From positions 96,001 to 160,000 of the forward strand of contig CAVYIM010000009.1 in the NCBI GenBank assembly GCA_963768655.1: DNA of 64,000 nucleotides, in the 5' to 3' direction. Shown here in pieces: positions 14,842-21,198 of this stretch. The notes beneath the pieces are model-generated. The model made no database searches. It was not told where the DNA came from and was given only the letters and a program-made list of their open reading frames with translations. Source of the DNA: an uncultured Chloroflexia bacterium. GTDB lineage: Bacteria; Chloroflexota; Limnocylindria; Limnocylindrales; CSP1-4. The translations under genes and the position numbers were made by a program. How positions within the stretch are numbered: position 1 is the stretch's first letter; each line of letters begins with the position of its first letter.

Positions 14842-16203
14842 ATGACCTTCGCCGCTCGGACCTGGGGCCGAATGTCCCTGACCGCCCGCCTGGCCGCGAT
14901 CCTCGTGCCGCTGGCCGTGCTGCTGGCCATAGCCACCGTCGTGGGCATCGTGTTCATCCTGCCGCCCACGATCGATTTCCTGGGGGCGAACCTGCCGCTG
15001 GTTCGGTTCGTCGTCGCGGTCGTCGGCATCCTCGTCCTGACCATCCCGACTGCGTTCGTGCTGATCTACATGGAGCTCAAAGTCATCGCCCGCATGAACC
15101 TGCGAGTCGGCCCCAACAGGATCGGACCGTGGGGCGCGGCAATGAGCCTTCTCCACGGTTTCAAGGTTCTCTCCAAGGAGGACTTCGCCCCCACCGGCGC
15201 CGATATCGCGGTCTTCACGCTGGCCCCGGTGGTCACCTTCCTGGCCAGCGTCATGACCCTGCTCGTCATCCCGTTCGCGCCCGGCATCTTCGGCCAGGAC
15301 CTCAACATCGGCGTGCTCTATTTCTTCGCCATGGGCGGTCTCGCCGTCCTTGGTCTGCTCATGGCGGGCTGGGCGAGCTTCAACAAGTACTCGCTGCTGG
15401 GCGGGCTCCGCTCAGCGGCGCAGATCGTCAGCTACGAGATTCCGCTGACCATCTCCGTCGTGGGCGTGGTCCTGCTCGCGGGCACGATGAGCATGAACCA
15501 CATCGTTCTGTCCCAGTCGGGCTCCGCGCTGGACTGGTTCGCCCTCAAGCAACCCCTCGCGGTGCTGATCTTCTTCATCGCCGCCACGGCCGAGGCCAAC
15601 CGCACCCCGTTCGACATGACCGAGGCCGACTCTGAGATCGTCGCCGGATTTGCCACTGAGTACTCGGGGATGCGCTTCGGCTTCTTCTTCTTCGCCGAGT
15701 ACGTGAACGTCTTCATCATCTCGGCCCTCATGGTGACGCTCTTCTTCGGTGGCTGGACGGCGCCGTTCAACTGGCCCTGGCCGTACAACCTGAACTGGCT
15801 CGACGCCTCGGGCATCGGCATCCTCTGGATCGGGATCGCGCTGGTCGTCCTGTTCGTTGCCACGGACATCCTCGGCGCGGCGATCTGGCTGATCGGGGGC
15901 CGAGAGTGGAGCAGCCCGGCGGCCTTCGGCCTCGGCTTCCTGATCGCAGGCGCCGGCATCACCGCCGCAGTCGGCCTGGCCTGCTTCGTCGCCTTCGGCT
16001 GGGTCCAGGGCATCTTCTGGTTCATGGCCAAGACCTACGTCTTCGTCTTCACCTTCGTCTGGATGCGAGGAACCCTGCCGCGCGTCCGGGTGGATCAGCT
16101 GATGGGCTTCGCCTGGAAATGGCTCCTGCCCGCCTCGCTCCTGAACCTGTTCGTGACGGCGGCCGCAATCATCATCCTCAACCAACCGGTGACCCCGCGA
16201 TGA
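14842..16203 (+). CDS. nuoH: NADH-quinone oxidoreductase subunit H (elongated)
   Basis: RVGPNRIGPWG, NKYSLLGGLRSAAQIVSYE, EANRTPFD..EADSEIVAGF.TEYSG, RGTLPRVRVDQLM. Confidence 0.95.
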   Translation: MTFAARTWGRMSLTARLAAILVPLAVLLAIATVVGIVFILPPTIDFLGANLPLVRFVVAVVGILVLTIPTAFVLIYMELKVIARMNLRVGPNRIGPWGAAMSLLHGFKVLSKEDFAPTGADIAVFTLAPVVTFLASVMTLLVIPFAPGIFGQDLNIGVLYFFAMGGLAVLGLLMAGWASFNKYSLLGGLRSAAQIVSYEIPLTISVVGVVLLAGTMSMNHIVLSQSGSALDWFALKQPLAVLIFFIAATAEANRTPFDMTEADSEIVAGFATEYSGMRFGFFFFAEYVNVFIISALMVTLFFGGWTAPFNWPWPYNLNWLDASGIGILWIGIALVVLFVATDILGAAIWLIGGREWSSPAAFGLGFLIAGAGITAAVGLACFVAFGWVQGIFWFMAKTYVFVFTFVWMRGTLPRVRVDQLMGFAWKWLLPASLLNLFVTAAAIIILNQPVTPR

Positions 16204-18417: not shown

Positions 18418-21198
18418 ATGCGAGACACCCATCTCCGCCCCAGCCCGAGCGCCCCGCCGGCGACACCGCCGGCCGGCAAACCCGCCCTGCCCGCCCCGCC
18501 CGCGATGCCCGCCAGCAGGCTCCCGGCGAATCCGCCGATAGTCGCGCCGGGACCCCTGCCGGCCCTGCCTGCCGCCCCGTCCGTGAAGGGCCTGCGGCCC
18601 GCCGCCAACGAGGGACCGGTGTGGAATCGCAGGGCCGGACGCCCCGACAGCCGCCCGGACGCAATGGCGCCGCGCGACACGGTTACGCCACTCGACGACT
18701 CGCCTGCCGAGCGTCTGCTCACGACCCAGGCTCCGCAGCGGCCGCTGTCGACGTCCACAATCAAGCTCACGATCGACGACCGCGAGGTCACCGGGACCGA
18801 GGGGCAAACGATCCTCGAGGTCTGCCGGGCCAACGGCACCGACGTCCCCACGCTCTGCTACGAGCCCAAGCTGCCCGGCTTCGGCGCCTGCCGGATGTGC
18901 GTCGTCGAGGTCGACGGCGACGATCATCCGACGATCTCGTGCGCCCGCGAAGCGGCGGCCGGCATGGTCGTCCGAACCCAGACCGACGAGGTTCGCCGGC
19001 TGCGCCGGACCAACCTGGAGCTGATCTTCAGCGACCACAACGCCTATTGCCTGCCGCCCTGCCAGAACAAGTGCCCGAGCCACATCGACATCCCGGGCTT
19101 CCTGAAGGCCAATGCCGAGGGCAAGTTCCGCGAGTCGGCGCGCATCTTCAAGCGCACCATCCCGTTCCCTTCGATCCTGGGCCGCGTCTGCCCGGCTCCG
19201 TGCGAGGAGCACTGCCGCCGCGACGAGGTGGACGAGGCCATCGCCATCCGGGATAGCCATCGCTACGCCGGCGACATCGTGCTGGCCGCGCAGAAGGACG
19301 GCATCGAACCGCCTCTGCCGTTCGAGACACAGCCCCGGACCGGCAAGCGCGTCGCGATCGTCGGCTCCGGACCGGCCGGCATGGCGGCGGCCTACTACCT
19401 GCAGCTCTCCGGCCACGACACGACCGTCTTCGAGCGCGACCCCGAGCCCGGTGGAATGCTCCGCTACGGCATCCCGGAGTACCGCCTGCCCAAGAAGGAC
19501 GTTCTCGAGCCCGAGTACGAGGCGGTCTGGCGCCTCGGCGCGAAGCTGGAGGTCAACCAGGCCCTGGGTCGCGACTTCAGCCTGGACGACCTGCGCGCGC
19601 GGGGCTTCGACGCCACGATCGTCGCCACCGGCTGCTACGACACCAACAAGCTCGGCGTCGAGAACGAGAACGCAGTCGGGGTCATCGACGGCCTGGAGTA
19701 CCTCAAGATCGCCACTCTGGGCCTGCCGTATCCGGGCCACGCCGGCAGCCGCGTCGTCGTCATCGGCGGCGGCTTCACCGCCATGGACTGCATGCGCACC
19801 TCCGTCCGCCAGGGCGCGAAGGAGGTCACCCTCGTCTACCGCCGTGACATGAAAGACATGCCGGCCGCCAGCGAGGTCCACGAGGGGCTCGAGGAAGGGG
19901 CTCGAGCCATCTTCCAGGCCGGCCCGACGAGGGTCATCGTCAACGCCAAGAATCGCGTCACCGGCGTCGAGTTCATCCGCATGCGCCCCGGCGCGCCGGA
20001 CGCCTCCGGCCGCCGCCGCCCCGAGCCCGCGCCCGGGACCGAGTTCGTGATCAAGTGCGACCGCGTCCTGCTCGCCATCGGCCAGGGGCCCGATTTGTCG
20101 TGGATAGGGCCCGGCAACGAAGGCATCGAGGCGGCCCGGTACAGGCTCAAGGCCGACGCGGTCACGTTCGAGACGGGCCGGCCCGGCGTGTTCGGCACCG
20201 GCGACGTGCGCATCGGGGCCGCGACCGTGGTCCAGGCCATCGCCGAGGGACGGCGCTGCGCCTACGCCGTGGACGCGTTCTTGCGCGGCACGGACCTCTC
20301 CGAGCTGCGCTCACGCGAGACCCTCGCCGAGCCCGAGCTCAAGTTCCTCTCGATCACGCCCTACACCGACGAGCCCAAGGAACCCCGTCACCGTCTGGCG
20401 GCAATGCCGGCGGAGGAGCGCAACAAGAGCTACGTCGAGTACGAGATCCCCTATACCCAGACCGAGGTCATGGCCGAGTCGAGCCGCTGCCTGCAGTGCA
20501 CCTGCGAGGCCATCGGCTACTGCGACCTGCGCAACCTGGGCCTGGAGTACGGGACCACGCTCGAAACGCTGGAGCCTCGGCACAACGAAGGCGCCGGCTA
20601 TCGCAGCGTGACGGAGAACCGCTTCACCGGCGCCAACCACGACTACATCCGCGACGACAGCCACGCCTTCATCCTGCGCGAGCCGTCGCGCTGCATCGAC
20701 TGCGGCCGCTGCGCCGCGGTCTGCGCCGACGTCGTCGGCGCCGCCTGCTACGACTTCATGCGCATCGGCTTCGACACGCTCGTGACGACGCCGCTCGACA
20801 TGAGCCTCAACGACACGCCGTGCGTCTCCTGCGGTCGCTGCGCCGAGACGTGCCCTACCGGCGCGCTCATGCTCAAGCCGCGCGTCTTGGAGAAGTACGA
20901 CGTCGACGAGAGCCGCTGCATCCTGTGCGGCATCTGCGTGGATGCCTGCCCGTACGACGCGCTGCGCGGCGGGCCCGACAACGAGCTGGCCCACACCGAC
21001 CGGTCCGGGCCGATGATCGACCTGATCGGCCTGGCCGCCATGGCCGGCGAAACCGAAGTGACCTACATCCAGCGCGAACGAGACTGGCTCGCCCACGCCG
21101 TGGCCGACGGTCGACTCGCGAACCCCGGGGCGGAGCTGCCGGCGCTGCCGCCCGCGCTCGCCACTCCCGGCGACGGAAATGGAGCCGAGCGCCAGTGA
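18418..21198 (+). CDS. Multidomain oxidoreductase: NuoG-type Fe-S domains with inserted GltD/NfnB-like FAD/NAD(P)H domain and C-terminal NuoI-like half
   Basis: PTLCY..[8 protein letters not shown]..SC (2Fe-2S); [106 protein letters not shown]. Confidence 0.88.
   Translation: [926 protein letters not shown]

Follow-up and report, generated by a model that had tools for sequence, protein, structure and literature searches.

A split nuoI gene surrounding a three-protein input module in the complex I operon of Limnocylindria

Few enzymes have been studied as closely as complex I, whose invariant core includes the subunit NuoI. Here we describe a nuo operon in which nuoI is divided between two genes. 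The operon is located in a 64,000-nucleotide stretch of DNA (the window; all coordinates are positions in it) of contig CAVYIM010000009.1, assembly GCA_963768655.1, from an uncultured Chloroflexia bacterium (CSP1-4, Limnocylindrales). The layout is confirmed: nuoI is split around a module of three proteins, to be referred to as P0001, P0003 and P0002 in their order along the operon. The best explanation is that this operon encodes the only complex I of the organism, with a NuoI built from two polypeptides. We estimate a probability of roughly three in four that the two halves form one 2x[4Fe-4S] ferredoxin fold, anchor the module, and carry electrons from reduced nicotinamide adenine dinucleotide (NADH) or its phosphate (NADPH) to cluster N2 and quinone.

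In the proposed mechanism, the NuoE-like protein P0001 opens with the N-terminal half of NuoI (N-half; the TxxYPE segment and the first CxxCxxCxxxCP motif), and P0002, a fusion of the NuoG N-terminal region with a GltD-like domain, ends with the C-terminal half (C-half; the second motif and a GPxxEL tail). The two halves would dock at the normal NuoI site beside NuoB, NuoD and NuoH and rebuild the ferredoxin fold, with clusters N6a and N6b each held by three cysteines of one chain and the fourth of the other. Through this interface the input module of three proteins would be held to the Q-module. Electrons would enter at the flavin mononucleotide (FMN) of the NuoF-like protein P0003 (from NADH), at the flavin adenine dinucleotide (FAD) of the GltD-like domain (from NADPH), or at both, and would pass along the iron-sulfur chain of the large protein to N6a/N6b, to N2 in NuoB and to quinone. 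NuoL, NuoM and NuoN would pump protons like those of ordinary complex I.

The two halves of NuoI

There is one nuo operon in the window, on the + strand (11792-27062). Its order is nuoA-B-C-D-H, the fusion of the NuoI N-half with a NuoE-like domain (P0001; the IE gene), the NuoF-like gene (P0003), the fusion of NuoG-N, GltD and 2x4Fe-4S parts with the NuoI C-half (P0002; the GI gene), and nuoJ-K-L-M-N. The ten core subunits A, B, C, D, H, J, K, L, M and N all match their own Pfam families, with E values of at most 4e-26, and the N2-site cysteines (CC, GDC and CPP) are present in the translated nuoB product. Start and stop codons of the three genes between nuoH and nuoJ overlap or nearly abut. 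The IE gene begins at the nuoH stop (a shared ATGA, 16200-16203), the start of the P0003 gene overlaps the IE stop in the same manner (ATGA), and the GI gene ends 25 nucleotides before nuoJ.

The head of P0001 reads ...TIQYPE...RFRGR...CETCFQCAQACP and contains a single CxxCxxCxxxCP motif (residues 56-67). P0002, with residues counted from the ATG at 18664 (844 residues), has three CxxCxxCxxxC motifs, starting at residues 677, 720 and 752, the third of which is of the CxxCxxCxxxCP form and lies in a stretch of 33 residues encoded at about 20893-20991. The two motifs that share one chain in NuoI are thus on separate chains here, one in P0001 and the other as the third motif of P0002. The features shared with NuoI/Nqo9/TYKY (NDUFS8; models TIGR01971 and PRK05888) are the TxxYPE segment, the two CxxCxxCxxxCP motifs, the tail behind the second of them and the position between nuoH and nuoJ. 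In contrast to those proteins, each polypeptide has one motif and is fused to something else, with about 4.5 kilobases (kb) of other genes in between.

The NuoI profile TIGR01971 (121 positions) matches P0001 residues 12-78 over profile positions 1-66 (51.6 bits) and P0002 residues 740-781 over positions 71-112 (47.4 bits). Together the halves span nearly the whole profile, neither reaches its cut-off of 113.05 bits, and they are the two top matches to it in the whole genome; the same pattern is found across the class. The halves were also scanned alone. For the 110-residue head of P0001 the ten best families are NuoI models, and for the 107-residue tail of P0002 the eight best NCBIfam families are all NuoI/NdhI, matched at second-half positions. 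Tails from four orthologues, 40-76% identical over the region, also match NuoI models, from profile position 69 or 71 to between 111 and 117. Among solved structures, the top single-stretch matches to the tail are the C-halves of NuoI/TYKY; polyferredoxins rank above them solely through the summing of many repeats.

In 2x[4Fe-4S] ferredoxin folds, each cluster is bound by three cysteines of one motif and the CP cysteine of the other. Motifs 1 and 2 of P0002 align with the dicluster domain of solved HydA/StnC structures, with equal spacing. They already make up a pair, and motif 3 is therefore left without a partner in its own chain.

These results agree with most of what a first-pass annotation of the window, made from the sequence, had proposed. 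It had read P0001 as opening like NuoI with one motif and then turning into NuoE, which both the sequence and the PF01257 match bear out, with its coordinates correct. Its placement of the third motif after a normal NuoG-type pair, and its prediction of complementary partial matches to TIGR01971, hold as well. The missing half of NuoI is indeed found at the C-terminus of P0002, and it ends near position 21006 rather than at 21040 as had been suggested.

Conservation across the class

The genome that contains the window (3.37 Mb in 9 contigs, 88.6% complete) has a single NuoH and no TIGR01971 match at or above the 113-bit cut-off. We surveyed 61 Limnocylindria genomes, 60 of them at least 90% complete. 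An intact NuoI above the cut-off is present in 2 of the 61, both from family f4. In families f1 to f3 it is found in none of 41 genomes, the present one included, and the other 40 are all at least 90% complete. An intact nuoI elsewhere, which would have refuted the first-pass annotation, was thus not found in these genomes. Each of the 61 genomes has at least two NuoI matches at E values up to 1e-6, and among the matches listed these follow the pattern of one N-half and one C-half.

The gene order nuoH-IE-nuoF-GI-nuoJ, on one strand, is identical at all 52 loci that hold all five genes (80 loci were fetched, and the other 28 are interrupted by the end of a contig or by a frameshift). No locus examined has the N-half without the tail. 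The N-half motif keeps its four cysteines (C56, C59, C62 and C66) in every one of 96 sequences, and the third motif its own four (C752, C755, C758 and C762) in 66 of 66. Over motifs 1-3 of P0002, the 12 cysteines are invariant in 65 or 66 of the 66 sequences, the lone miss being an alignment gap. This invariance spans N-half identities from 30% to 95%, with the dispersed forms described below included.

The window comes from a metagenome-type assembly in 9 contigs, and a chimeric layout or a broken gene, with nuoI truly intact in the organism, has to be considered. The shared order at the 52 informative loci comes from many independent assemblies, some with megabase contigs. The open frames, the overlapping start and stop codons, and short public contigs of relatives that span every junction also speak against an artefact. 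As order and cysteines are conserved over independent assemblies, misassembly and pseudogenes are excluded, and the probability that we assign to an artefact is close to nil. The survey of gene order suggested with the first-pass annotation thus came out in favor of the layout.

Public read runs hold no more than 0.15 of the sampled words of the window, as short contigs of relatives only. Single public records span the junctions at 16200, 17012, 18419, about 20880, and 21198. Two of the bridging records are from RNA libraries, which is no proof of transcription, and contigs give no measure of depth. One contig in run X3 skips from 16119 to 21461, and one in run X17 from 18425 to 21129, with 22-26 letters on one side; these are taken as chance joins of conserved parts.

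Across species-representative genomes, relatives occur at no fewer than 439 places; the lineage is in the Chloroflexota, Candidatus Limnocylindria/Limnocylindrales, including the small-genome Limnocylindrus. In the genus and a sister family, every one of 41 genomes encodes a P0001-like protein. In a phylum sample of 401 genomes, which includes the unpublished G170, G206, G240, G300 and G078 (none in this class, and none used for any other claim), a full-length P0001-like protein is found in 23 of 23 genomes of f1, 4 of 4 of f2, and 17 of 17 of f3. A search of 1.84 billion representatives with the 26-row alignment of P0002 residues 655-844 returned 52 proteins at E values up to 1e-30, mostly fragments. 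Most f3 loci have extra DNA between the gene of the large protein and nuoJ, about 1.4-2 kb in four of them (L100, L101, L103 and L104) and about 7.5 kb in another (L105).

The input module and the proposed pairing of the halves

The inserted module is, by its sequence, closest to the Stn/NfnABC (Bfu-type) transhydrogenases and not to canonical NuoEFG. Matches of P0003 to Bfu-type B subunits reach 333-339 bits, whereas none to NuoF of complex I exceeds 266. Its top solved chains are 9bov_B, HydB, the B subunit of NiFe-Bfu, the chain named "HoxF" in the StnABC entry 8oh5, and NfnB. P0002 scores 542 bits against 9bov_A, 486 against NfnA and 465 against StnC, compared with at most 88 for NuoG chains. 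The equivalog cut-offs of the complex I families are not reached, with 343 bits for nuoF_fam (TIGR01959; cut-off 558.65), 92 for NuoG (470.05) and 48.5 for nuoE_fam (142.4).

The GltD-like domain of P0002 is inserted into the His-ligated cluster motif of the NuoG-like part, as seen in the alignment to StnC and 9bov_A, and the junction motifs align with those of StnC. Such junction motifs are described for Stn and Nso in passages of PMC7483475, which also link a glycine motif of the GxGxxA type to NADP(H). The sequence shows two glycine motifs, the second of which is GxGxxA. P0003 contains GRGGAGFPT and GEET, which we take to be the NuoF signatures for FMN and NADH. A molybdopterin-like domain is missing from the large subunit.

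P0003 aligns to residues 114-526 only of the 584 in the Bfu-type B subunit, and to the equivalent stretch of other chains, and Pfam finds no Fer4 domain in it. P0003 is therefore without the thioredoxin-like domain at the N-terminus of that subunit and the ferredoxin domain at its C-terminus. According to PMC10482914 and PMC12018979, the NADPH site of StnABC/NfnABC is the GltD-like domain, with a non-bifurcating FAD, and bifurcation falls to the B/C pair. Because the parts specific to bifurcation are absent, we read the module as a plain dehydrogenase input.

Several observations weigh against a NuoI of two chains, or against the electron input proposed for it, and they are set out here together with the alternatives that they favor. 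At 88.6% completeness, the present genome taken by itself could carry an intact nuoI in its remainder. The scores of the C-half are a second concern. The generic Pfam Fer4 model and TIGR01971 are about equal on the tail (39.5 and 40.3 bits). Compared pairwise with two intact NuoI proteins of Chloroflexota, the C-half scores 76-79 with their first part and 77-78 with their second, and a MAFFT alignment of the halves with intact NuoI places it onto the first motif. The N-half scores 134 and 108 with the first part of the same two proteins and 51 with the second. As the pairwise scores of the C-half are ambiguous, its placement is based on profiles and gene context and not on pairwise similarity. 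The possibility raised earlier, that the motif would turn out to be a generic ferredoxin, is answered in favor of NuoI by the family ranking and left undecided by the bit scores.

Motifs 2 and 3 are spaced by 21 residues and align jointly, as a dicluster unit, to polyferredoxins, and Pfam Fer4_7 spans residues 720-766 with 44.5 bits. The third motif could then pair with motif 2 in its own chain, as in polyferredoxins, and do no more than add clusters to the NuoG-like protein, with the N-half acting alone or with another partner and NuoI reduced. We regard this as unlikely, though it is the strongest of the alternatives. Motif 2 already has motif 1 as its partner, in a HydA/StnC-type domain that aligns over its full length with conserved spacing, and the eight cysteines of the two motifs are invariant. 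The GPxxEL... region past the third motif is matched by NuoI models only, at second-half positions, in five of five tails. In-chain pairing would also leave the four invariant cysteines of the N-half without a partner, and the regular company of N-half and tail without a reason.

Two cluster sites of the module have decayed. The NuoE-like domain retains C193, C195 and C198 (CxCxxC) in all of 88 sequences, and the second cysteine pair of its 2Fe-2S site is absent in 88 of 88, which leaves it without half of the ligands. In f1 to f3, the N3 motif of the NuoF-like protein (window 18110-18268, residues 367-418) has become CGKT(I)PC, with the middle cysteine gone; it is the canonical CGxCxPC in f4 and in the dispersed forms. 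Every one of 80 P0003 sequences has C372, C378 and C418, and 51 of the 80 have C367. These losses count against NADH and NADPH input as proposed, and they demonstrate that clusters do get lost in this system. The halves of NuoI might likewise be relics, holding one cluster or none each and serving as docking peptides only, with electrons bypassing N6a and N6b. This seems a little less probable still than in-chain pairing. The eight cysteines of the two half-motifs are invariant, including in the dispersed forms and at the lowest N-half identities. The N6a and N6b clusters bridge the input module to N2, and without them there is no known route from one to the other.

It is also conceivable that the third motif has nothing to do with NuoI and is a remnant of the [4Fe-4S] site of the molybdopterin domain (N7-like, located behind the dicluster domain in StnC, FdhA and NuoG). 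StnC and 9bov_A have a CxxCxxxC site at the same distance past motif 2, and the tail aligns weakly into it. The motif is nevertheless of the ferredoxin type CxxCxxCxxxCP, Molybdop_Fe4S4 has no match on the tail at E values up to 10, and NuoI models are the top matches and cover the flanks. A remnant of this kind is very improbable.

The pairing of the two halves was also assessed by structure prediction. Residues 655-844 of P0002 and 1-110 of P0001 were folded together with four 4Fe-4S clusters, using our own alignments. The scores are 0.45, 0.46 and 0.46, and those of three controls are 0.00. The partner has a predicted local distance difference test score (pLDDT) of at least 51, and the runs agree in at least 63% of contacts. 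We grade this outcome as weak support: it passes at 0.46 and returned no contacts, which is a further point against the two-chain fold. In calibration, 116 of 157 solved complexes came up to the mark, as did 2 of 215 mismatched pairs, and scores of 0.60 or below comprise 18 of these 157 complexes and both mismatches; the use of our own alignments and of riding ligands falls outside this calibration. The pass may be due to likeness to solved NuoI structures. AlphaFold2 on residues 655-844 of P0002 alone (26-row alignment) gave a mean pLDDT of 34.7 and a predicted template modeling score of 0.20. This model is unusable, which also counts against the two-chain fold, and it is uninformative on the position of the third motif. 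The co-fold of the halves proposed with the first-pass annotation thus leans in the expected direction in its score, without contacts to go with it. Finally, we infer the co-ligation of N6a and N6b by two chains, and the use of NADH, the use of NADPH and the direction of electron flow are predictions from sequence. With these reservations, a single ferredoxin fold shared by P0001 and P0002 remains our preferred reading.

The features of the operon are listed in Table 1. The GI gene probably starts at the ATG at 18419, as the stretch upstream of 18664 is kept in close relatives. This stretch (18419-18663) extends the N-terminus by about 82 residues rich in Pro and Ala; close relatives keep part of the extension, and more distant relatives lack it. 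The length of the large protein is 859-950 residues according to gene callers. NuoH is long (462 residues), with an N-terminal extension, and its Pfam profile is broken by an insert at residues 350-395 or so that is absent from more distant relatives. In P0003, residues 22-40 (about 17075-17130) form a Gly/Ser/Ala-rich repeat, SGSGAAGGSGAAGGSGANG; its N-terminal 80 residues are variable, and contigs of relatives skip 17114-17256.

Residues 193-258 of the NuoE-like domain (16776-16973) include a conserved His (234). P0001 homologues from some genera of the family have about 218-225 residues and are without this part. Open frames of about 700 residues at the IE gene in some genera were considered as fusions with NuoF and rejected, since the matches lie in different frames; the IE product there is merely shorter, at the length just given. 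In the dispersed forms Pfam detects NuoE barely or not at all. A scan of 11000-28000 for promoters and terminators gave nothing exceeding shuffled sequence.

Table 1. Features of the nuo operon, as positions in the window. Residue ranges of the large protein are counted from the ATG at 18664.
Feature	Position	Strand	Family match and remarks
nuoA	11792..12148	+	PF00507, E 2.9e-32
nuoB, conserved part	12478..12981	+	PF01058, E 4.1e-26; reading frame opens at 12028, start approximate
nuoC	12985..13542	+	PF00329, E 1.5e-36
nuoD	13620..14831	+	PF00346, E 2.8e-82; start approximate, reading frame opens at 13290
nuoH	14815..16203	+	PF00146, E 6.8e-105; sole NuoH of the genome
P0001 gene (IE), NuoI N-half::NuoE-like, 271 residues	16200..17015	+	TIGR01971, PF01257
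NuoI N-half, P0001 residues 12-78	16233..16433	+	TIGR01971 positions 1-66; motif C56-P67 at 16365-16400
NuoE-like thioredoxin-fold domain, P0001 residues 125-258	16572..16973	+	PF01257, E 2.7e-19
P0003 gene, NuoF-like flavoprotein, 465 residues	17012..18409	+	PF01512, PF10589, PF10531 (SLBB)
Large-subunit gene (GI), NuoG-N/GltD/ferredoxin::NuoI C-half	18419..21198	+	probable ATG 18419, 926 residues
2Fe-2S domain, NuoG/HydA type, P0002 residues 32-107	18757..18984	+	PF13510, E 1.3e-20
GltD-like FAD/NAD(P)H domain and 4Fe-4S part, P0002 residues ~129-543	19048..20292	+	PF14691, PF07992; PRK12814, E 1.4e-159
HydA/NuoG-type 2x[4Fe-4S] pair, motif 1 C677-C687 and motif 2 C720-P731	20692..20856	+	
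NuoI C-half, P0002 residues 740-781	20881..21006	+	TIGR01971 positions 71-112; motif 3 C752-P763 at 20917-20952
nuoJ	21224..21772	+	PF00499
nuoK	21775..22080	+	PF00420
nuoL	22088..24055	+	PF00361, PF00662
nuoM	24066..25589	+	PF00361
nuoN	25602..27062	+	PF00361

Dispersed gene sets, known systems and biological meaning

The strongest comparative evidence is the existence of dispersed, complementary gene sets in relatives. In family f4, loci L106 and L107 have the order nuoB-nuoD-IE-nuoF-GI with no membrane genes nearby. A second locus of this family (L117 and L118) holds nuoA-C-H-J-K-L-M-N, with nuoJ directly after nuoH and nuoI absent, and the genomes with these loci have no intact NuoI. Another f4 genome, G439, carries both types: a canonical operon of 14 genes that includes an intact NuoI, and the split cluster (L119 and L120).

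Three genomes from other classes of Chloroflexota (G164, G155 and G101) have a canonical operon with intact NuoI (locus L115 is among these canonical operons) and a four-gene cluster, nuoB-IE-nuoF-GI (L108-L111). They also have a nuoA-C-D-H operon that lacks exactly nuoB and nuoI (L121-L123), and each has a separate second match to nuoJ. This match belongs to a nuoJ-K-L-M-N locus in G164 and G155 (L124 and L125); in G101 it is known from the nuoJ match alone. The four-gene cluster had been considered as a soluble enzyme, a reading that was dropped because of the complementary A-C-D-H and J-K-L-M-N loci. These three genomes appear to encode two complexes I, a canonical one and a dispersed one that uses the split NuoI pair. 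A dispersed second complex I, with the pair in place of NuoI, is the simplest account of such gene sets.

In trees of NuoD and NuoB, the two canonical rows fall on one side of a well-supported branch (100/99 and 95/90); with these two rows and no outgroup, the trees are no more than compatible with a single origin of the split type. As for the origin itself, the layout is best explained by a three-gene cassette that landed between the parts of nuoI coding for the two motifs and then became fused to them in frame on either side. The module probably derives from a soluble enzyme of the Stn/NfnABC (Bfu) type. The first-pass annotation had proposed the insertion of a nuoE-nuoF-nuoG/gltD cassette into an ancestral ABCDHIJKLMN operon. 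The Stn/Nfn-like character of the module is consistent with this, as is the order left after removal of the cassette, A-B-C-D-H-I-J-K-L-M-N, which is that of 11-subunit complex I (passages of PMC3144371). The order of events is another matter. The operon form need not be ancestral, because related Chloroflexota carry the split in dispersed sets.

Overall, the complex shares with canonical 14-subunit complex I the ten ordinary core subunits and a flavoprotein input module. In canonical operons the input module is located between nuoD and nuoH, whereas here it is inside nuoI. The large subunit differs from canonical NuoG in having a GltD-type FAD/NAD(P)H domain instead of a molybdopterin-like domain. 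The two types coexist in some other Chloroflexota, as described above.

With Stn/NfnABC (8oh5, 9n5u and 9bov), the module shares a GltD-like domain inserted in a NuoG/HydA-like N-terminus, as well as the HxxxCxxxCxxxCP and CxxCxC...C motifs (passages of PMC7483475). There are differences in all three subunits. The B subunit of Stn/NfnABC has an N-terminal thioredoxin-like and a C-terminal 2x[4Fe-4S] ferredoxin domain, the latter being the site of ferredoxin reduction, and P0003 is without both. The C subunit has four 2Fe-2S cysteines, two of which the NuoE-like domain lacks. In the large subunit, the molybdopterin-like domain is gone and a half of NuoI stands at the end. Moreover, the present module is tied, by gene context, to a membrane complex I.

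Input modules added to an 11-subunit core, such as FpoF in methanogens, are described in passages of PMC3144371, and the input here also looks separately recruited. In contrast to FpoF-type add-ons, it is spliced into the gene of a core subunit, with each half of that subunit fused to one of its proteins. Mbx-like operons of Thermotoga and proteobacteria likewise have a GltD-type NAD(P)H site at the NuoI position, according to PMC4758237. NuoI is substituted in that case, whereas here it is split onto two proteins with NuoE/NuoF-like partners. The first-pass annotation knew of no description of this architecture. We also found no split NuoI and no operon of this kind in full-text searches of the open literature (subscription journals and supplements being outside their scope), nor is a split NuoI mentioned in the passages of PMC3578206, PMC4758237, PMC3144371 and bioRxiv 10.1101/2021.02.01.429150 that bear on complex I.

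In public annotation, the two fusion proteins and their homologues (P0004-P0123) are named 'NAD(P)H-dependent oxidoreductase subunit E', 'FAD-dependent oxidoreductase' or 'formate dehydrogenase major subunit'. NuoI is unmentioned in these database names, save in composite labels from JGI on some homologues of the large subunit. Genome-based reconstructions and pathway tools will therefore list nuoI, nuoE and nuoG as missing in the class.

The broader significance is a claim to which we give even odds. It holds that nature has produced a two-chain ferredoxin fold that clamps a dual-flavin module (FMN/NADH and FAD/NADPH), derived from a transhydrogenase, to a pumping complex I, that this input module has an independent origin, that NADPH is oxidized directly or made in reverse, and that the arrangement is the standard of a whole class. 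If true, the core of complex I can be reassembled from pieces, with an input module grown onto both halves of NuoI, and the complex would represent a further, separate recruitment of an input module from a soluble Stn/Nfn-type enzyme. It would also give the study of split 2x[4Fe-4S] folds a natural model. Limnocylindria are frequent in peat, soil and lakes, and the whole class shares the layout. Should the GltD-like domain be active, NADPH may feed the respiratory chain directly, which would alter models of redox balance in these organisms, and operation in reverse would make NADPH from quinol and the proton-motive force.

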